Of a stretch of DNA of 51,736 nt, positions 2,922 through 40,599 are shown piece after piece. The translations under genes were made by a program, and so were the position numbers. The notes under the pieces are model-generated. The model saw nothing but the letters and a program-made list of their open reading frames with translations. It made no database searches and was not told the DNA's origin. Position 1 is the stretch's first letter, and each line of letters begins with the position of its first letter. The DNA is from a virus (Duplodnaviria > Caudoviricetes): positions 1 to 51,736 of IMG/VR virus record IMGVR_UViG_3300017913_000476; one strand, given 5' to 3'.

Positions 2922-3395
2922 TTAGGAGCCTTTTCCGAAAGATACCCGACTATTACGCTCTGGGGCGTTAATCGGCATCCGTGGGTTGGATTCCCTCATA
3001 AGCTGGTTATCAACGGAAGTAATCGCCTCAGTAGACTGACGCTGATAGTATTCGTTGCGTTGACTCGCCATGCCTTCGGGCATCCGGCAGAGAAGCAATC
3101 CACCAACTTCGATGTTACCTTTGAAGCGAGGGTTCGGGTCCAGAACAAGATGTTCCATCTCAGGTGCTTCCGCGATTGGAACTGCTTCCCACCCCTCACG
3201 GAGTTTCTTGGAATAGTTCATCGGGTCGTCTTGTCCCTGAGTACTAATGCGAACCCACTTAAATGCGTAACCATCTTTTGGAAGAGGGTCAGGTAGCATG
3301 TTAGGTGGAGACCAATTTTGTGGGCGTAATTCCTGTTCACGCTTCTCAACTGAACGAGGGGTACGAGATGCTTTTGCTGTATCAGACATTTCCAT
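2922..3395 (-). CDS. conserved head-module hypothetical protein
   Basis: WVRIS...KLREGWE...IEVGGLLLCRMP motif; between scaffold and capsid. Confidence 0.8.
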   Translation of the reverse strand: MEMSDTAKASRTPRSVEKREQELRPQNWSPPNMLPDPLPKDGYAFKWVRISTQGQDDPMNYSKKLREGWEAVPIAEAPEMEHLVLDPNPRFKGNIEVGGLLLCRMPEGMASQRNEYYQRQSTEAITSVDNQLMRESNPRMPINAPERNSRVSFGKGS

Positions 3396-16587: not shown

Positions 16588-17388
16588 ATGCTTACATCAA
16601 AATCAATCATATCCCTTCTTCAATCAGACAATCGAAAGGTAAGGGAGTACACGCAGTATCTGCTTCACAAACAAAGCGCAGAGGCTGGCAAAGAGTTCTT
16701 CTCTCAGTTTGGTATTGACTGGTCATACGCAGACGTATTCGAGAAGCGATACTACGACATGCCCAATATTGTTCGAGAGTTCGATAGGCAGTGGGCTTCT
16801 CTTATCGATAGCATCGATGACATTCAAACCGCTCGAAAGGAACTGCAAGAACCTGTCGAGGAGATGGGATTGCAATCCATCATTGCCAAGGCAAGACGGG
16901 CAAACAAGTGGGGTCTTGATGGTGAGTACTGGCTCAGTCAACTTGATGCAAACATTCGACCAAACCTGAGTTGGATGATGGACAGTGGTGTGCAAGACGG
17001 TAAACAATACATGCGTCTCACCGCAAACGTCACGGTTGACAGGGATACTGGTAAGATTACCAACACCCATCCCTATGAAGTAAAGACCGTGTCTCTGGAC
17101 ATCCCACTCATGTGGCACAAACATCTTTCATTGATTGGTCAGGCTGTGATTGACAACAAGATTGTCCTGTCTGTCAGGCCGCTTGGGATGTTTGGTGATG
17201 TCGAGGGCTTTGCCGCCAAGGTTGCGGTCAAGGGTCTCAAAGCATACGACTGGCGTACTGAAGATGTTTACATTGGCAAGTTCACAGACACCGTGCAGAT
17301 TTGTAAGTCCCGTATGCACATCAAATCTGTTGCCAAGCGTAAAGCATCTGCTGAATTTACGGATGAACTGCTGGCGAGTTTTGACTAA
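16588..17388 (+). CDS. hypothetical protein
   Basis: SD GAGG, preceded by hairpin GGGGCAGG-GATGT-CCTGCCCC. Confidence 0.75.
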   Translation: MLTSKSIISLLQSDNRKVREYTQYLLHKQSAEAGKEFFSQFGIDWSYADVFEKRYYDMPNIVREFDRQWASLIDSIDDIQTARKELQEPVEEMGLQSIIAKARRANKWGLDGEYWLSQLDANIRPNLSWMMDSGVQDGKQYMRLTANVTVDRDTGKITNTHPYEVKTVSLDIPLMWHKHLSLIGQAVIDNKIVLSVRPLGMFGDVEGFAAKVAVKGLKAYDWRTEDVYIGKFTDTVQICKSRMHIKSVAKRKASAEFTDELLASFD

Positions 17389-17648
17389 TGGACAAGCGCA
17401 TGCGTGACATCAGGAAACTTATCAAACGTGAGGGTCTTGATGTCCTTAACATAACCACAGGCAAACACATAAACATCACTGTCACTGACGGGTCAGTGGT
17501 GTTCAGTGTGGTAGCATCTATAACACCGTCCTGTCACAGGGCAAGTCGCAACCTACGTTCACACCTGAGGAGAGGTATCCGTGAGGCACAAGAGAAATCC
17601 AATGGCTCAACGTCTAGCCAACCCCCTCTTCAGGAAGAGGGTAGTTAA
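17388..17648 (+). CDS. HicA-like (dsRBD-fold) putative mRNA interferase
   Basis: Helix-G-strands pattern with TGKH, then SITPSCHRASRNLRSHLRR C-terminal helix; TAATG coupling. Confidence 0.55.
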   Translation: MDKRMRDIRKLIKREGLDVLNITTGKHINITVTDGSVVFSVVASITPSCHRASRNLRSHLRRGIREAQEKSNGSTSSQPPLQEEGS

Positions 17649-17745
17649 ACAACAGAAGGGGAAGGGTAGTTATGCAAGAAAAGGAAAGCATCCAAAACCT
17701 TATCGACTTTCATCAGAGGATGATGAACGAAGCCGCGATGGCTGA
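17581..17745 (+). CDS. arfA: ArfA-like alternative ribosome rescue factor, 54 aa (not in ORF track)
   Basis: Hand translation MRHKRNPMAQRLANPLFRKRVVKQQKGKGSYARKGKHPKPYRLSSEDDERSRDG; SD GAGGAGAGG before GTG; ArfA core PLFRxRVxKxxKGKGSYxRKGKH. Confidence 0.8.
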   Translation: MRHKRNPMAQRLANPLFRKRVVKQQKGKGSYARKGKHPKPYRLSSEDDERSRDG

Positions 17746-17845
17746 CAGCAAACACCTCTATGATATACATCGTGAAGCACTGGTCAAACTTCAGGATGAA
17801 TTAGACAACATTCATGACCCATTTATGGAAGGATATCCAGTATGA
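17672..17845 (+). CDS. 57-aa helical hypothetical protein (not in ORF track)
   Basis: MQEKESIQNLIDFHQRMMNEAAMADSKHLYDIHREALVKLQDELDNIHDPFMEGYPV; ATGA-coupled to the sirtuin. Confidence 0.65.
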   Translation: MQEKESIQNLIDFHQRMMNEAAMADSKHLYDIHREALVKLQDELDNIHDPFMEGYPV

Positions 17846-18516
17846 AGTATAAAAATGTAACTGTATTCACTGGGGCTGGAGTGTCAGCCGACAGTGGATT
17901 ACCCACGTTCCGTGACCCCAAGGGATTATGGGACAACCACAACCCTGACATTGTCTCGTCAGTCGGTGGCTTTGAACGTAACCGTGAGGAGTTCATGGAC
18001 TTCTGGGACACAGCCCGTGGCTATTTTCAGGGCGATAACTTCAAACCAAACAAGGCACATGAAATTCTTGCGATGTGGGAACGCTTGCAACATGAACATG
18101 GTGGCGAGTTCAATCTGATTACCACCAACGTGGACAACTTGCATGACCTTGCTGGTTCAAGTGACCCTATCAAAATCCACGGCGACATCTTGGTCAATGG
18201 TCGTGAGTATGAGTATGAAGTCGAAGGCAAGGTGTTTAGTTGGCACATGCCTGACGTTGTTCTGTTCGGTGACAGTAAGCACAGGGCAGATGATATGTGG
18301 AGAGCCGTTGCCAAGGCTGACTTGTTTGTGTGCGTTGGTTCGTCACTGTCCATCGGTGGTGACGATGCCATCATATACAATGCCAAAGACCAAGGTGCTG
18401 TCACAGTTGAGATTAATCCAAACCCAACAGGACACGCTGGCTTTGACGTTGTGATACCTAAGTCCGCAAGCGAAGGTCTTGAAGACCTGACAACCTTACT
18501 GTGGGGAAAGGGATGA
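17842..18516 (+). CDS. Sir2/CobB-family NAD-dependent deacylase
   Basis: TGAGVSADSGLPTFR, TNVDNLH..AG, IHG, PDVVLFG, VGSSL, EINP. Confidence 0.92.
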   Translation: MKYKNVTVFTGAGVSADSGLPTFRDPKGLWDNHNPDIVSSVGGFERNREEFMDFWDTARGYFQGDNFKPNKAHEILAMWERLQHEHGGEFNLITTNVDNLHDLAGSSDPIKIHGDILVNGREYEYEVEGKVFSWHMPDVVLFGDSKHRADDMWRAVAKADLFVCVGSSLSIGGDDAIIYNAKDQGAVTVEINPNPTGHAGFDVVIPKSASEGLEDLTTLLWGKG

Positions 18517-32321: not shown

Positions 32322-32524
32322 GTAAACTCACCGTTACTACCTCTGCCACACCTTGAACCCCGTATTTTTGATAACGGTATCTCCCTAACAATATGACTAG
32401 ACATTTCTTCTATGCGCCTTTGACAGGCTTCCACACTTTTATATGGGCCGTATGTATCTTCAGCGACTAAACACTGTGGTCCAGTGACCGACATCCAACA
32501 GAACAAAAGGGATGCGTAAAACAT
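32318..32524 (-). CDS. small Cys-containing hypothetical protein
   Basis: TAATG/ATGA coupling. Confidence 0.6.
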   Translation of the reverse strand: MFYASLLFCWMSVTGPQCLVAEDTYGPYKSVEACQRRIEEMSSHIVREIPLSKIRGSRCGRGSNGEFT

Positions 32525-35500
32525 TATCCATCCCTCCGTATTCTCTTTTTCAGCCTACCCATGTCAGCAACGACACGATTGCGTTGTTTGATAAGTCTAT
32601 TAATAAGAGTTCGCTTTTCTGTAGGGGTTCTGCCGCTTGAACGAACACCAGATATTTGGTCGTTAATGGTGTTTAGTATTTCATACTTAGCATTTAGCTG
32701 AGAACGAACAGAGACAAGGTTCATGTTGTCTCTTTCTAAATCCCTAGCCTCCTCATAGTTGCCTTCCTCGCGCAGTCTGTTAATACCGCGAACAACCTCA
32801 TCAGCCTCACGCTTCATCTCGTAGAAGTCAGTCATGTACTGATTGGCTGGGTCTACATCCTGTGGTTTCACAAATCTTTGTAAGCCCAAGAAGTTTGCAA
32901 AGTCTGCTGGAAGGCTGTCGCCAAAGATGCCAGCGGGTTTCTCTGGGACTGTTCCAAACATGCCAAGGATGGAATCCATGCCAGCATAGAGGTATGAACC
33001 CATTGAACCAATGTAACCATTGATAAGCTGTTCAACCTCAATAGGACTGATGCCAACATACTTACTAATCTGACCAATCATCTTGGCAAACTCTGATGTA
33101 TTAGAGTATGCCCGTTGTCCCGTAGGCAATCCGCGAACACCCATGCTTTCAACCTCACGACCACGGAAGAAGTCGTAGTTAGTTCCCACCTCAATGATTG
33201 GTTTGATAGCCTGAGGAATTGGGTTGAATGAAAAAGTATTCAGAAGAGTTTGCGTAACACCTTCCGCAACGTACTCGCCATCTTTCTTCCTTATCCCGTC
33301 AATGATAAGTTCTGGAATAGTGGAGAAGATTGCACCAATCTCAAACGGCTTTGGAAGCAGGAACTTCTTATCTCCAATGTAGAAGATGTAGTAGTTCAAC
33401 TTCCTGTGTATCGGTTCCTTATCCCACTCATCATGCTGAGATGCCGCCGCATAGTATGCCATAGACAATGCAAACATACCCATGCCCTTACGGATGGTAC
33501 TCTTTGCATCTGCTTCAACACCGAAGGCCGCGCCTGTTCTATACAAACCTTGAAGCCTTGCATTAAGGAAGGGAACAAGAGGCACAAGTGTGGCAAGTGT
33601 CATGCCAAGCGCATCGTTAGGGTTACCCTTGCGGCTATAGTTAATAAGGTTCAGTGCTTCATATGCCGCGTCAGCCTTAGACATTCCAGAGTCACGGAGT
33701 CTTCTGTAGATACCTTCCCTTGTCGCATTCTCAGTGGCCTCACCACCAGTGTTTACTGCATCAATAAGGTTGGCACCCTTGTCCAACGCATACTGCATCA
33801 TCGCCTCTAGCTTTCTGTCAGAGTCAATGATGTCGTAGCCTTGATGGCGGCGATAGAAACGCTTCATCTTCTTGGAGAAGTCTTTGTTATCCCCAAAGCT
33901 ATAACCACCGAAGCCAGCAAGCGTCTTCATTTCTTGTACTGTTTCGGTATCCTTTAGTGCATTCTTCAGGCCGATAGCACTGTCCACCATAGGGCGGAGA
34001 GGCGCATCGACAGTCACATATCCAGCCATGTCGCCACGAAGGAAGTTGGCAATCATGAACGGCGGTGTCATTGTGATGGCACTTCTAAAGAAGCGACCCA
34101 TTCCCTGCATGCCAGCGAAGATACCTTGCATCTGAACAGGTGTGAATGAACGCATGGCCTGAAGCAGTTCACCATCACTGCCGACATCGTAGAACATGGT
34201 CTTGCCGTTCTTGCGATATGTAATGTGGTTGTTGTTGTTTACCGCCTCGGATGATGTGATGTGTTTTGGCTGGTCAACCTCATCGTACATGCCGTTGCGC
34301 TTCATGTCTTCAGTCAGACTCACGATGCGCTGTGTTGCAAGGTTCTGATATCCAGCATTGACCAGTGCATTTACGTTCTTGTAGACGTTCTCATACAAGT
34401 CACCGATGTTCTGGTCACCGCCCTTGAGTTCAGAGATGGCAGACTTAATCTGTGCGTCTGGGTTATCGAAGGCAGATGTGGTTCCGTATGTACCTTTCTT
34501 GGCAGTCTTTAGCTGACCGAAGAAACCTTCAGTGTACAACTCGTCCTCAATAATTCTGTAGAACGGGACGTAGTCCGCAGTGCCTGTTAGCTTACGCTTT
34601 GTCTGTGCATCGATGGCACCAGTATCCACCATGAACTGCATGACCTTGTCATTAAAGGCCTTGTAGTTATTGAACACTCTTTCAAACTCAGGGTTCTGTG
34701 CGCCGTAGCTAAGACCCTCTTGTATGTCAGCCTCAGACATAAGGTTCTCTCTGCCCTCTGCCTTGAGTCTTCTTGCCCTCTGTGCATACACATACATCTG
34801 GAACTTGGCATACTTCTCACCAGTACCGATGGGTTCAAATATAGTGCGAAGTCCACCTATTGAGTTGTCAATGGTTATTTCACCTTCAGCACCCAGAACA
34901 GGCGGGCCATGTTCGATGAATTGTTGCATGCGTCCAGAACGCTGTTGTGCAAACTCAGATATCTTCATGGCACCTTCAGCAAATGGAAGATATCTTGCTA
35001 CACCATACTTAATTTTTGATAGCCGCCTCTCTCTTTCACCGAGGGGGCGAAGGCCGTGAACCGCTGAGTCAATAAACCTATTGAACTGCTGTTTACGTCC
35101 CTCTTTTGTAGTGAACGGGCGCAACACGTTAAAGAACTTGCGACCAGCATTATCCCGTGCTGGGTCAGCAAGTACACGCTTCATGCCTTCTGTTGTTCTG
35201 TAGTCCCTTCCGAGTCTAATTGACGCTTCCTGTCCGCCAGTTCGACCAGTGCCTTGACGAGATTGTCTGTCTGCTTGTCGGATAGATTCTCTGACAGAGT
35301 TAAATCTGCGTCCTCCGTCCACGGAGCGTATCCCTGTTTCGCCATTAATCAGTTCTCCATAACTGTCTTCATAAGATTGGTTGAGGCGTTCAGCCCCGTC
35401 ACCCATCTTCATCACCTTGTCATACAGGTCTTTCTCTGGATACCAGATAATAGCCTGAAGGTCTGCCGATGTGATATCTATTCCCTGTTCTTGAAGTATC

Positions 35501-38500
35501 TCTCTTGCGCGATTTACAACAGAACGAATCCACTGACGCTGTGTGCCTGATGTAGGGGACTCATTTGTCTTTGCGCTGTTAACGATAGCGGCTTCTGCAC
35601 TACGCATAGCCTTGCTTTTTTTCATTTCGCCAGCGTCAATAGCATCCCTGTTCTCTTTGAAGAACTGGTTACTCATCCTTGCTACGCGACTGATGGTATT
35701 GAATGTATACTGTTCATCAGTTCCAAACAGTTCTGGGTCAAATTCAATGCCCTCTTCTGTCATGGCTTGACGCAAGTCGGTTATGTTCTTTTCAAAGGCT
35801 GGCTTACCCATAAGCGTACCAGTCATGCGACCCCATGTACGCATGAACCACTTATCGATTGTCACTGGGTCAAAGTTACCCATCAGGTTTTGATAAAAGC
35901 CCTGACCAATCTTAGGTCCAAACACAAACGAACCATATAGCTTGGCATCCATGTTCTCGCCACTGAGTGACACAGCGTCTGGACCTTTTGTATCTATGCC
36001 AGCTTGGTCTAGTGCTTCAATCAACTCACGCTTTGTATACTGACTAGCCAAGAAGTCAGCGAAGCGGAAGTTGCGACCCGGTGCATTGAAAGCCTTCATC
36101 AGCTTGTTAGCTGTCCTGAAGTTGGCCTTGATGGCACCAGCGGCCTCGCCCTCACCAAACTCAGGGAACCTACCGTTCTCTCTCCAGAACTCGTAAGCAC
36201 CAAGACCCAAAGCGGAGTTACGGTCAACGGTTATACCTTGGGATGTGATTGCTAGTGCTGTACTAAACGCAGAACGGTGTTCACTGTCCGACTTAATCTC
36301 TGGGTACATCTGTGCAACCGCATCGATTGCACGTTCAACGCTTCTCGTATACCAGTCTGATGCATTAGTGTCTGGATTGTTTTGCATAGCGGCAATAACT
36401 TCAGCCGCCATAATCTTAGATATTGACTCGTCAGTCTCAGGACTTGACTGAGTAATTGGCTTACCCAGAAGCGCAAGTGCCTTTCTGTGTAGCCCAAGGC
36501 CAACCTCAGGAACGAGTCGACCCTTAGGACGCTTTTTGCCATCACCCTGAACTTCAGTATCTCGTTCAGGAATGTCCACTGCAAACTCAGGGTTGTACAA
36601 GATGTCTAGTGCGGACAGTGCGCGTTCCCTGTCTGTAAGCCCAACAGAGTCAGCAATCCTGTCATTCTGCCTGTTTGGCTGTACCTGTGTCAGGTCAGGC
36701 ACACGGTCAAGGCGGATAGATGCCTCGCCAATGATGTCAAACTCGGCATCAACTATCATGCTATCATCGTTGAACAGGGAAAGCTGTTCTTCCATACGCC
36801 TTTGTGCGCGGTTAGCAACATCTTCCTGTGTTGCCTTCTTCTTGTTCTTGACCATGTATGAGATGGCACGGGTCTGGAGAATATCCTGTGAAAGTTCAGG
36901 AAACTCTTTCCCAAACATCTTCATCTTGGCAAGGCGATTGTATATTCTTTGCTTTTGATTTTGGGCTACAACGTCTGCCTTATTGTCTCTACTAGACTCG
37001 TTGCCAGCAAACTTAATGCCGTCAACCTTTCTCCCGTTAGCCTTTGCATCGTCAAGTGCTTTCCTAATGCCAGCGATGACAGAGCCATACAGCTTACTCA
37101 TACCCTCTCTATTGATTGGAACCTCAGACGCATCGTAGGAACCATCAACTTGGAAGTCGATGTTAAGTAAGGACACCATGCCACCCGGTTCACCAATACG
37201 AACAGCTTTTCCATCTATAAGGTTTGTTGTGTCAAAGATGTCATCAGAGTAGTCTGTTTCAATCCTTGATATAACATCCACATCCCTCTTAAATTTCCTT
37301 GTTTTCTTGTCAAGGTCTTTAAGGAATACGCTGTTCATTTGCTTGACTTGGTTGTCAAACGGAACATATGTCATCTCTATGTTCGTGCCAGTATCATCAC
37401 GATATATCAACTGGTCTAGCGCATCTTCTTTATTAACTTCCAAGGTTGTTGTCTTGGGGTCACCGTCAGTACCCAATCTAACCATAGTAAAGTTAACCTT
37501 GTTATCACCCCTTTCGTTTACCTCGGTGAGTGTCTCACCGATAACAAAGGCATGTTCTTCAAGGCCAGCGGCTAGTGTGGTATCGTTGGAGAAGTCGCCG
37601 TAATATTTAATTGGATGATACCCCAACTCCTCCATAAACTTAGATTTACTTTGGCTCATATTGTTTGCCGCATCCAGAAGTCTTTGGGGAATCTTACCCT
37701 TCAGTTCTGGCAAGTTCATATCCAGCATATTTTTTATGAACACTAAAGCATCAGTGTCTATACCACCGCCACGAAGTGCAGATACTGGTGGCGTGTCCAT
37801 TTCATACTCAATAGTACCAGAAACATCACCAGTGGACTCATTAAGAACCATACCGTCATCAGCCATCTGTGCTTGATAAGCGGCAAAGATATCTCTTTCA
37901 CTAGCCTCTTCTGCGGCTTGACGGAATGGTGCTTGTTCTCTTGGTGTCAGCTTGCGACCCTTGAGTTGTTGACCAGTCTTACCCTTGCCAGCACGGGCAA
38001 ACACATCCTGCGCGGTCTGGAAGCCCATGCCATTAAGAGAGTTCTTGAGGCGCGGCAGGAACTGGCTAACAAAATTAAAGTAGCCACCCATAGGGCCAGC
38101 CAATGGGTTAGCTTCACCAGCGGCTTGTGCCTTCTTGTAGTACTCATAGGTCATCGCCTGAAACTCAGACGGGCTTTTCATGATGCTGTCTGGAAGCTGA
38201 CCGTTTAGCGCAAGGTTATGGTATCCTTCACGACCATATTTCTTCCACAATCTCTTAACAGAACCCGGCAGTGCCTTGTAGTTAACCTTGCCGTCCTTAT
38301 CCAGCTTGTAAAAGGAGTCGAGAACCTTCTTATCTTTAGGACTTTCTGATGCGTAGAAGTCCTGAAGAACGTGAAATGCTTCGTGTGCCGCTGTACCACG
38401 GACACCTTCTACATTATCGCCCTGTAGTGCTAGTTCGATTACAGCCTTTGACTTGCCATCGACTGTGTCCTCATACATCTTAAAACCGTATGCATCATTA

Positions 38501-40599
38501 CGCTGTGTCAAACGGTCAAAGAAGCGGATGTCCACACCATTCTGTGCGCCTTGCCCACCCAGTGTATCTACGATTGCATCAGCCGCTAGGAACGCACCAA
38601 CAATCTCGTTAGATGTAACCTTCTTATTATTAAGAACCTGTGTCTTGATTGCGTTGGCCGCCCTTGCACCTTGGTCGCCACGCTTGGACATAGCATCAAG
38701 CCGTGCCATCAGGTAGTTTGTAGCACCTTCGTAGCGCGCCTCGGCCCGGTTGGTTGCTTCTTCATCCATTAACCCGTCAGGGGTCATTCTTGCAGAAGCC
38801 TCACCTCCACGAATTTTGAGTGCGTCAAGCAATCCACGGGTGACGATGGGGCCAATCTCCTTACGGAGTTGCTTGCCCTCTTCGGTGTCAGTCCTGCGTA
38901 CCATACGCGGCTGTGTGGCAACGTCAGTTTCCTGAACTGTGTCGGGCGTTGCGGTTAGCCTAATCTTACCATCTTCGTCAACGGCAGATGTTTTACGCAG
39001 AATGGGGTCTCCGACCTGTTGGTCTTGTTCCAGTGATGTTGTCGGGGATACATTCTTGTCAGAAAGGCGGCGGCGAATAAGCCTTGCCTTTGCTGGTATA
39101 GGTATATCCTTGGTGGTGATGTCAGAAAGGATGGGGTCGTTATCAGCATTCTGTTCCGCAAACTCAATGAGTTCACGGTTGTTCATGCGAGATACGTTTT
39201 GTTCAGCTTGAGAGACAGGGGTGGGTGCCAGAACGACATCAGACTCTTGTTCGTTCTGTATATTCTTTATGATTTGCTGTTCAAGTGCAGGGTCAGACAA
39301 TGCGATAAGAGGGTCTTCGCCACGTTCAATCGCCTTGCGAGTGACATCCATAACCATTGACTGGTTAGTTTGCCTTGCACGTTCATCGGGTGTAAGAGTA
39401 GGTTGTTCTGGCTGTGTTTGCAGGATGGGTTCCTGCTGACCAGTTAATACCTGTTGTTGTACATTGCCTTCCCGGTCAACAACTGGTTCAACTCTTTGGG
39501 GTTGTACAGGGGGCGTGTCAGGTTTTGCTTCAATCTGCGGCACGGCCTGTGGACCAGCTATAGCTTCTGCTTCTGGCTCACGACCAGCAACAAATCCTTC
39601 TGCCGCCGCTTTTAGGTCTGCGTCAGGGTCAGAACGGTCAACGCCAAAAACACCACTAGCCGTACCGACACCGCCACCGATAGCACCACCAGCCAGCGCG
39701 GCCTCCTTAATCCTATAAATACCTTCAGGACTTGTTAGGGCATCAGCAACGTCCTCGTAATTATTGGCCTGTGCTATAGTCAGGGCTTCTTGGAACGACT
39801 CTGTAAGTGCCTCCGCACCAGTGCCTTGAAGGCCTTTGCGAAGCATGTTGCCAGTAATTGTTCTGCCAGAACCCTTTGCAAAAAGAAGTTTTGACAAAAC
39901 TGTATTTGCGGCTGACTGAATTGTAGATGTGAGGAGAATATCAACCTGTTCATCAAAGGTAGGGTCTCTTCCTTGAACTTGCTTAAATTCGTCTACATTT
40001 CTACCAGCGAAAGCGAGAAGGGCCGCGCCTGTACCAGCGGCAATAGAGCCGATTCCTGCACCAATGGCTGTCCCAATACCGGGGGCAAACGCCGTACCTA
40101 CAGCCGCACCAGCCTTGCCCCCACCATAGAACGCGGCGGATACTGCGGCTAGTTCAGGCAGTGACTGGGCAAGGTAAGATGCACCAGAAGAAATTACATC
40201 CCCAATACCTTCTGCCTCTTGAATGGCTTGGATACCGGGCATGTCCGCAACAACATCTCGTTGCCGTTGTGCAAAGGCCTTTAGAGAATCCTCTGTATCG
40301 TCAGTGTTGTCACCGCCAATCATATCGGTGACCATAGCTATGCCTTCAGCAGACTGACCAACAAGATTTCTTCCACCCATCTCTATAAGGTCAGCGGCAC
40401 GACCAAAGAAGCCTTGTTCTTCCAACTCGCGTTGACGGCGGCGTTCCTCTTCGCGTTCAAGTTTTTGGGCGTAAGAGTTTTCTAGGTCTGCAACAGACTT
40501 GTTTGGATGATACTTGCTACGATACGCTTCGATAAGGACATCGTCTTCCTTATCATCGTACATAGGAAACTGCTGGCGCAGTGCATCAATAAATTCCAT
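32524..40599 (-). CDS. giant internal virion / large polyvalent protein (2691 aa), LPD38-like C-terminus
   Basis: Last of the internal-protein genes; HEAFH zincin motif; INYSRKG...PFLNARLQG C-terminal domain. Confidence 0.8.
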   Translation of the reverse strand: MEFIDALRQQFPMYDDKEDDVLIEAYRSKYHPNKSVADLENSYAQKLEREEERRRQRELEEQGFFGRAADLIEMGGRNLVGQSAEGIAMVTDMIGGDNTDDTEDSLKAFAQRQRDVVADMPGIQAIQEAEGIGDVISSGASYLAQSLPELAAVSAAFYGGGKAGAAVGTAFAPGIGTAIGAGIGSIAAGTGAALLAFAGRNVDEFKQVQGRDPTFDEQVDILLTSTIQSAANTVLSKLLFAKGSGRTITGNMLRKGLQGTGAEALTESFQEALTIAQANNYEDVADALTSPEGIYRIKEAALAGGAIGGGVGTASGVFGVDRSDPDADLKAAAEGFVAGREPEAEAIAGPQAVPQIEAKPDTPPVQPQRVEPVVDREGNVQQQVLTGQQEPILQTQPEQPTLTPDERARQTNQSMVMDVTRKAIERGEDPLIALSDPALEQQIIKNIQNEQESDVVLAPTPVSQAEQNVSRMNNRELIEFAEQNADNDPILSDITTKDIPIPAKARLIRRRLSDKNVSPTTSLEQDQQVGDPILRKTSAVDEDGKIRLTATPDTVQETDVATQPRMVRRTDTEEGKQLRKEIGPIVTRGLLDALKIRGGEASARMTPDGLMDEEATNRAEARYEGATNYLMARLDAMSKRGDQGARAANAIKTQVLNNKKVTSNEIVGAFLAADAIVDTLGGQGAQNGVDIRFFDRLTQRNDAYGFKMYEDTVDGKSKAVIELALQGDNVEGVRGTAAHEAFHVLQDFYASESPKDKKVLDSFYKLDKDGKVNYKALPGSVKRLWKKYGREGYHNLALNGQLPDSIMKSPSEFQAMTYEYYKKAQAAGEANPLAGPMGGYFNFVSQFLPRLKNSLNGMGFQTAQDVFARAGKGKTGQQLKGRKLTPREQAPFRQAAEEASERDIFAAYQAQMADDGMVLNESTGDVSGTIEYEMDTPPVSALRGGGIDTDALVFIKNMLDMNLPELKGKIPQRLLDAANNMSQSKSKFMEELGYHPIKYYGDFSNDTTLAAGLEEHAFVIGETLTEVNERGDNKVNFTMVRLGTDGDPKTTTLEVNKEDALDQLIYRDDTGTNIEMTYVPFDNQVKQMNSVFLKDLDKKTRKFKRDVDVISRIETDYSDDIFDTTNLIDGKAVRIGEPGGMVSLLNIDFQVDGSYDASEVPINREGMSKLYGSVIAGIRKALDDAKANGRKVDGIKFAGNESSRDNKADVVAQNQKQRIYNRLAKMKMFGKEFPELSQDILQTRAISYMVKNKKKATQEDVANRAQRRMEEQLSLFNDDSMIVDAEFDIIGEASIRLDRVPDLTQVQPNRQNDRIADSVGLTDRERALSALDILYNPEFAVDIPERDTEVQGDGKKRPKGRLVPEVGLGLHRKALALLGKPITQSSPETDESISKIMAAEVIAAMQNNPDTNASDWYTRSVERAIDAVAQMYPEIKSDSEHRSAFSTALAITSQGITVDRNSALGLGAYEFWRENGRFPEFGEGEAAGAIKANFRTANKLMKAFNAPGRNFRFADFLASQYTKRELIEALDQAGIDTKGPDAVSLSGENMDAKLYGSFVFGPKIGQGFYQNLMGNFDPVTIDKWFMRTWGRMTGTLMGKPAFEKNITDLRQAMTEEGIEFDPELFGTDEQYTFNTISRVARMSNQFFKENRDAIDAGEMKKSKAMRSAEAAIVNSAKTNESPTSGTQRQWIRSVVNRAREILQEQGIDITSADLQAIIWYPEKDLYDKVMKMGDGAERLNQSYEDSYGELINGETGIRSVDGGRRFNSVRESIRQADRQSRQGTGRTGGQEASIRLGRDYRTTEGMKRVLADPARDNAGRKFFNVLRPFTTKEGRKQQFNRFIDSAVHGLRPLGERERRLSKIKYGVARYLPFAEGAMKISEFAQQRSGRMQQFIEHGPPVLGAEGEITIDNSIGGLRTIFEPIGTGEKYAKFQMYVYAQRARRLKAEGRENLMSEADIQEGLSYGAQNPEFERVFNNYKAFNDKVMQFMVDTGAIDAQTKRKLTGTADYVPFYRIIEDELYTEGFFGQLKTAKKGTYGTTSAFDNPDAQIKSAISELKGGDQNIGDLYENVYKNVNALVNAGYQNLATQRIVSLTEDMKRNGMYDEVDQPKHITSSEAVNNNNHITYRKNGKTMFYDVGSDGELLQAMRSFTPVQMQGIFAGMQGMGRFFRSAITMTPPFMIANFLRGDMAGYVTVDAPLRPMVDSAIGLKNALKDTETVQEMKTLAGFGGYSFGDNKDFSKKMKRFYRRHQGYDIIDSDRKLEAMMQYALDKGANLIDAVNTGGEATENATREGIYRRLRDSGMSKADAAYEALNLINYSRKGNPNDALGMTLATLVPLVPFLNARLQGLYRTGAAFGVEADAKSTIRKGMGMFALSMAYYAAASQHDEWDKEPIHRKLNYYIFYIGDKKFLLPKPFEIGAIFSTIPELIIDGIRKKDGEYVAEGVTQTLLNTFSFNPIPQAIKPIIEVGTNYDFFRGREVESMGVRGLPTGQRAYSNTSEFAKMIGQISKYVGISPIEVEQLINGYIGSMGSYLYAGMDSILGMFGTVPEKPAGIFGDSLPADFANFLGLQRFVKPQDVDPANQYMTDFYEMKREADEVVRGINRLREEGNYEEARDLERDNMNLVSVRSQLNAKYEILNTINDQISGVRSSGRTPTEKRTLINRLIKQRNRVVADMGRLKKRIRRDG

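Follow-up and report, generated by a model that had tools for sequence, protein, structure and literature searches.

A short, stop-ended gene of the ArfA family in a phage genome and its N-P-x-A17 subtype in phages and alphaproteobacteria

ArfA is regarded in reviews as limited to some beta- and gammaproteobacteria, where it is a back-up made only when tmRNA fails. A 54-codon gene in a phage whose host is likely a marine alphaproteobacterium would not fit this picture, and raises the question of whether it encodes a rescue factor, an inhibitor of the ribosome or something else. The window, that is the whole stretch of 51,736 nucleotides analysed here, is a whole linear virus record that is 84% complete. 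Its genes include those for terminase, portal, capsid, primase/helicase, ribonucleotide reductase and integrase; neither tRNAs nor a tmRNA are encoded in it. The initial annotation took the phage for an alphaproteobacterial one, and this is plausible from the ribonucleotide reductase, which shares 74% identity with its counterparts in Roseobacter phages CRP-3 and CRP-212, and from the cell wall hydrolase, whose nearest relative is in CRP-345; the terminase, however, points partly to a gammaproteobacterial phage, being nearest to that of DSL-LC04 (58%; host given as Gammaproteobacteria) and then to that of pelagiphage HTVC027P (51%). The phage is indeed a mosaic, with HTVC023P/027P-like terminase and tail genes next to a Roseobacter-phage-like reductase. 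A DnaD-like loader, an integrase, an ATPase and VWA pair, a Sir2 gene and a 2691-aa protein encoded at 32524-40599 were also observed.

The open frame and the core sequence that had drawn attention to this locus are present at positions 17581 to 17745 of the plus strand, from a GTG start to a TGA stop (54 aa). The GTG is preceded by a ribosome-binding-site-like element (17567 to 17580, plus strand), made of a Shine-Dalgarno-like GAGGAG (17567-17572) and a spacer of eight bases, and the 15 letters running up to the GTG are identical in the syntenic contigs L320 and L321 described below. The protein matched the Pfam ArfA profile PF03889 with 42.9 bits (cut-off 25.5) and the PHROG family phrog_20887, of function unknown; a search of NCBIfam gave no family match. 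Its phmmer matches in the PDB were six sequences, all of E. coli ArfA (E 7e-8 to 1e-7), and the alignment is ungapped, residue n of the phage protein pairing with E. coli residue n+8, so that it spans E. coli positions 9-62. Aligned to these chains, the 23-residue core showed the 18 identities, KGKGS among them, that the initial annotation had given. The conserved core extends over residues 4-37 (E. coli 12-45; 17590 to 17691, plus strand) and comprises a short helix, PLF, a putative RF2-pairing beta-strand, KGKGSY and a KH channel-binding segment, with roles assigned from passages of PMC8012679 and PMC5378476. A word search with the single sequence gave no homologue, and the one candidate from a single-sequence viral scan (L001) was spurious, its frame lacking the motif. 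AlphaFold modelled the lone peptide as a helix at residues 7-12 and an otherwise extended chain (mean pLDDT 70.7, pTM 0.27); the best Foldseek match of this model was ArfA 5MDW with an E value of 0.86, and the fold is thus uninformative. Judged by its sequence, the protein is a true member of the ArfA family that lies outside the canonical tmRNA-controlled subtype.

Several differences from E. coli ArfA lie at the N-terminus. Residues 1-8 are absent, as had been noticed at the outset, position 11 is His, Leu19 is replaced by Arg, and Gln10 of the phage protein does pair with E. coli Ala18. In the RF2-binding patch L24 and F25 are kept, and L19 and E30 are changed into Arg and Val; these two positions are also variable among 60 gamma/beta cores. 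The KGKGSY and KH segment is retained and reaches past E. coli Asn47, and the calculated pI is 11.3.

Two syntenic viral contigs (L320 and L321) were found by searching with the ORF upstream of arfA; a search with the 280-aa neighbour protein found no relatives. Gene order is the same in both, and each has an arfA orthologue at the same locus (911-1075 in L320, 2694-2843 in L321), identical to the phage protein at 24 and 25 of 37 residues, respectively. The frame is conserved at the codon level in these relatives: over codons 2-30, comparison with L320 gave a pN/pS of 0.18 and comparison with L321 one of 0.19, synonymous sites being near saturation, and values ranged from 0.18 to 0.23 among the three phages. 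Four sequencing runs revealed five strain differences within arfA, four of them synonymous and one changing Arg2 into Lys, and none touched the stop codon. Among other viral copies an uncorrected pN/pS of 0.13 was obtained (19 non-overlapping pairs from 55 distinct cores). These data show that arfA is a real gene under purifying selection.

The 3' part of the gene behaves differently. The C-terminal tail (17692 to 17742, plus strand) is charged, its last 15 residues having a GRAVY of -2.2, and an ordinary stop codon ends the frame, as first described. This tail is unconserved as protein: over codons 32-54, pN/pS against L320 was 1.94 in the ArfA frame versus 0.22 in the frame of a downstream ORF, and in L321, where this ORF was not found, ArfA has 49 residues and an unrelated, shorter tail. 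The charged tail is therefore a by-product of the overlapping gene. The downstream ORF (17672 to 17845, plus strand; 57 aa, no family match) begins within the arfA core and is itself under purifying selection; a later start at 17738 was dropped because conservation with L320 begins at 17672. On the other side, an 86-aa ORF (17388 to 17648, plus strand) overlaps the start of arfA. Its relatives have 73 residues, its last 13 or so codons form a dispensable extension across arfA, and most strain differences within the overlapping stretch change the residue encoded in its frame. It matched PHROG families of unknown function, and Pfam and the Atlas gave no family; it has a conserved GKH motif and a size that, we presume, recalls HicA-type folds. 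Downstream of arfA lies a Sir2-family NAD-dependent deacylase gene (17842 to 18516, plus strand), present at the same locus in both relatives. The arfA gene sits among small genes, on the strand opposite to that of the virion genes.

Control of arfA in E. coli rests on a stem-loop from which a non-stop mRNA results and on a hydrophobic tail (passages of PMC8012679 and PMC3989581). The initial annotation pointed to a hairpin within the phage frame, and a 7-bp stem, CCCTCTT-CAGG-AAGAGGG, does exist where it was placed (17624 to 17641, plus strand); we judge it a product of chance, with a z of -1.13, an equally long perfect stem in 147 of 2000 synonymous recodings, an equivalent in one of 37 viral homologues and different letters in both syntenic relatives. 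A second, weak hairpin in the tail (TTCATCA/TGATGAA) was rejected as regulatory (z -0.94; 90 of 300 recodings fold equally well). No terminator or long stem before the stop was found in the 3' part of the gene in the window, L320 or L321; the terminator scan among these analyses is a strict rule of our own that has no shuffle control and is blind to RNase III-type hairpins spanning the stop. Since the gene has neither a terminator hairpin nor a hydrophobic tail, it is likely free of tmRNA control and likely expressed independently of tmRNA; the idea of a tmRNA-independent version thus stands as likely at the sequence level. The only RNA evidence for arfA is one metatranscriptome contig, which by itself is no sign of transcription, and the RNA runs, being contigs that cover small shares of the window, are silent on expression and mRNA ends.

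How unusual is this form of ArfA? When viral contigs were scanned by pattern, 262 of 513 stretches were confirmed, and in a second scan 342 of at least 600; of 8000 candidates in a profile search, 7256 scored at E<=0.001, and canonical ArfA may be among these. The phage protein reads N14-P15-x-A17 with Q18, versus N14-A15-x-x-A18 in canonical ArfA. Among 60 distinct gamma/beta cores, all have A18, mostly in the context D13-N14-A15. The 48 distinct viral cores (80 loci), which were ranked by likeness to the phage protein and are not a random sample, all have A17, mostly with P15 and with Lys or Arg at position 18 (Ala in two). A17 was also found in 11 of 12 alphaproteobacterial cores (a count that omits four genome loci of other or doubtful taxa) and in 115 of 116 new database proteins, whose median start corresponds to E. 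coli position 10 and of which 103 end within 10 residues past the motif. In a tree of 125 rows and 31 columns, the gamma/beta rows and one viral row formed a branch (100/96) that leaves the phage protein outside; with so few columns the bootstrap is unsettled and the support rough, and we claim no donor or direction of transfer. With its N14-P15-x-A17 register, its start near E. coli position 9-10 and its place outside the gamma/beta branch, the phage protein belongs to this short subtype.

Two of the initial inferences are affected. The hydrophobic tail is indeed absent, yet this is not peculiar to the phage: the tail-less, N-terminally short protein is the common phage form, 31 of the 48 distinct viral cores stopping within 10 residues past the motif, and the view of an E. 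coli-type ArfA that lost its tail is rejected in favour of membership in a widespread subtype. Likewise, Gln in place of Ala18 had been taken as a hint of an inhibitor; because the subtype fixes Ala17 instead of Ala18, Gln18 is normal for it, which weakens the idea. A terminator-like hairpin within the frame was scored, by an uncontrolled rule, in up to seven of 49 viral copies (two of these calls, L046 and L055, are weak) and in the two Denitrobaculum copies (L092 and L093), against 22 of 75 cellular rows overall. The in-frame terminators of these two and of the viral copies indicate that the non-stop arrangement of a back-up rescue factor has been retained in part of the subtype.

We found no fixed neighbour gene around the viral copies; indeed the immediate neighbours seen in the window recur around none of 80 other copies, and of its genes only the ATPase and VWA ones do, in five loci. 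Several further observations were made on these sequences. The ArfA core is found within longer ORFs of marine phages (L027:2429-2809, L029, L033, L046, L050, L055, L062, L065 and P0033), where it is often flanked by GG-ending motifs that may be processing sites. Unannotated ArfA-like ORFs are present in Caulobacter phage Cr30 and in Roseobacter phage CRP-212, the latter (L004, about 2992-3117; 41 aa) in another frame at the 3' end of gp38. Acinetobacter phage Ac42 has a 39-aa ArfA-like gene without KGKG two genes upstream of rIIA (L009:1001-1120), and 63 Acinetobacter phage records, many of them T4-like, match weakly. Many ArfA ORFs of Halomonadaceae and Vibrionaceae (L113, L115, L116, L135-L171) have short tails ending in Ala-Ala, which we take to resemble the end of the SsrA degradation tag; such ends are a possible built-in degron of gammaproteobacterial ArfA.

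The subtype is also chromosomal. Short ArfA genes were found in Denitrobaculum (L092, L093) and in a Hyphomicrobiaceae genome (L107), the last adjoining housekeeping genes, one of them recJ-like. Across the class Alphaproteobacteria, sampled evenly, PF03889 matched in 10 of 401 genomes and our own profile in 25, seven of which had helped to build it. The order to which genome G277 belongs stands out, with 100 of 151 genomes matching the profile, 61 of them at E<=1.7e-10; three of the matching genomes are in the profile, and one of them (G511), which is unpublished, weighs one count. These genomes measure 0.7-1.5 Mb, with 25-30% G+C at the examined loci, and we infer that the order is SAR11-like, a reading backed by a close protein in NCBI that is named ArfA and comes from a Pelagibacteraceae bacterium (P0142). 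The chromosomal loci observed in it are L184, L185, L189, L209-L221 and L312-L319. All 16 strong loci examined end at a normal stop 2-9 residues past the motif, and in 12 of 16 a PfkB kinase gene adjoins arfA. The copies have about 33-45 residues, often without the KH motif, and many end at position 44. For the 39 weaker matches in the order, ribosomal protein L34 was considered and rejected, since the eight that were examined are ArfA-like peptides, seven of these without KGKGS. A third release-factor-domain gene (ArfB-like) was present in one of the 148 genomes with a release-factor-domain match, so that ArfB is essentially not found in this order by a first look, which may miss copies. A published survey (PMC11633108) counted arfA in none of 2376 Alphaproteobacteria by nhmmer at the DNA level; the short alphaproteobacterial ArfA, which databases do name, was missed by it.

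What could such a short protein do? In structural studies of E. coli ArfA, the empty mRNA channel is occupied by basic residues 31-48, RF2 gains a strand from residues 27-30, and its V198, F217 and W319 are bound by L19, L24 and F25 (PMC5378476, PMC8012679, PMC8874680, PMC4245945). An E. coli ArfA truncated at Asn47 still works (PMC5378476). RF2 is opened by an ordered N-terminal minidomain in which Ala18 packs between Ile11 and C1914, and the A18T protein binds without being able to activate RF2 (PMC5378476, PMC8012679). Residues V198, F217 and W319 were invariant in seven of seven alphaproteobacterial RF2 sequences. We consider it rather probable that the phage protein is an RF2-dependent rescue peptide made without tmRNA control. 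On host ribosomes that are stuck at broken messages it would bind in the vacant mRNA channel, then recruit and activate host RF2 so that the trapped chain is released, with the invariant Ala17 of the subtype taking over the packing role of Ala18. Made during infection from an ordinary stop-ended message without tmRNA control, it would prevent ribosomes from being tied up while mRNA decay or RNA-cutting defences overload host trans-translation. Rescue is favoured by the profile match, the shared core, the reach past Asn47, the retained L24 and F25 with their invariant RF2 partners and the purifying selection, and also by the N-P-x-A17 type being found on alphaproteobacterial chromosomes, in some cases with an in-frame terminator. 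Against it, residues 1-8, Ile11, Ala18 and Leu19 of E. coli ArfA are missing, and many SAR11-like copies are shorter than the shortest active E. coli form, others lacking KGKGS, which makes them putative rescue factors themselves.

These same losses, set against the E. coli protein of PMC5378476, can be read as those of a channel blocker or RF2 trap that binds like ArfA(A18T), the known bind-but-not-activate state, leaves RF2 closed, excludes tmRNA-SmpB and slows host quality control or translation. The phage gene has no self-limiting control, and there are variants without KGKGS in phages and hosts and many SAR11-like copies that end at position 44, all of which would suit a blocker. Nevertheless, we regard it as unlikely. 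The same changes occur in chromosomal copies, some with an in-frame terminator, and position 18 varies freely while Ala17 is fixed, in all 48 viral cores and in 115 of 116 database proteins, a pattern that suggests a shift of register more than a knock-out. Because the chromosomal copies share the changes and fix Ala17, we read the missing residues 1-8, Ile11, Ala18 and Leu19 in this way. Moreover, in the SAR11-like order, where an ArfB-like gene was seen in one of 148 genomes, the gene has a conserved place on the chromosome, at which a host would hardly maintain an inhibitor of its ribosomes.

The residues with which ArfA acts at the ribosome and at RF2 are the focus of the conservation, and this makes it quite improbable, in our view, that the phage gene encodes an ArfA-derived basic peptide with another role, for instance nucleic-acid binding in packaging or as a piece carried in the virion. 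The high pI, the cores fused to longer marine-phage ORFs (L027, L033, P0033) and the HTVC027P homologue gp30, which is encoded directly upstream of the small terminase gene and is listed as late in Table S3, would agree with such a role, but the window gene is surrounded by small genes and is read from the other strand than the virion genes, and the peptide is also retained by hosts. Least probable of all, and very much so, is that arfA is a passenger, or a host gene in decay, that plays no part in infection. Although the immediate neighbours in the window are absent around 80 other viral copies and RNA of the HTVC027P homologue is low (0-6 raw fragments early, 30-66 late), the signs of selection go most of the way to refuting this reading: pN/pS is 0.18-0.23 in the comparison of the three syntenic phages, which conserve the start signal, and 0.13 over 19 viral pairs.

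A wider proposal may tentatively be made, although we would not put it at even chances: the short Ala17 type would be a second widespread class of ArfA, free of tmRNA control and with a different RF2-opening geometry, that serves as the main back-up of SAR11 and by which phages take over non-stop ribosomes, either releasing them with no SsrA tag added or, in certain lineages, blocking them. Were the short subtype active, the range of ArfA would be widened, its core of 31-40 residues would set the lower size limit for a peptide that switches RF2 on, and phages would have a direct means of acting on the quality control of host translation. The window gene is one of hundreds; what makes it interesting is the subtype it stands for and the choice between rescue and inhibition, which is directly testable since the peptide is small enough to synthesise. 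Searches of the open-licence literature in PubMed Central and bioRxiv yielded neither a functional test of ArfA from a phage or an alphaproteobacterium nor an account of the Ala17 register or of a stop-ended form.

Compared with known systems, the phage protein shares with E. coli ArfA (YhdL; PF03889; PDB 5H5U, 5MDV, 5MGP, 5U4I and 7OJ0) the PLF..KGKGSY..KH core (18/23), and its span (E. coli 9-62) resembles that of the active truncated E. coli form; it differs in lacking residues 1-8, the hydrophobic tail and the RNase III/terminator hairpin, and in its normal stop. Unlike canonical gamma/beta ArfA, it has Gln18, His11 and Ala17 and lacks the minidomain in which Ala18 packs on Ile11. The short chromosomal ArfA of alphaproteobacteria has the same register and short N-terminus, most copies stopping soon after the motif, but differs in being chromosomal and in some cases carrying an in-frame terminator, the SAR11-like copies being shorter and often without KH. 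BrfA of Bacillus subtilis (PDB 6SZS) is also an RF2-dependent rescue factor with a KH motif, and its N-terminus, as described in passages of PMC6881298 and PMC8012679, is unlike that of ArfA, which means that other N-terminal designs can open RF2; BrfA is made from a non-stop mRNA, gave no sequence match to the phage protein among the PDB matches, and factors of its type work poorly across species (PMC6881298). Also comparable are the annotated phage ArfAs of Citromicrobium phage RXM (g10), Pelagibacter phage HTVC027P (gp30), Brevundimonas phages Domovoi and Bambus and Ochrobactrum phage OC (p093), which are of the same short N-P-x-A17 type and 50-57% identical to the window protein, with different gene neighbourhoods and tails. 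Two of them are named as ArfA by annotation in PMC8953757 (g10) and PMC12753301 (gp30), the latter calling gp30 highly expressed early and late, with 0-6 raw fragments early and 30-66 late in its row of Table S3. The initial annotation of a phage-encoded ArfA homologue thus holds as to family, although phage ArfA was already known by name.
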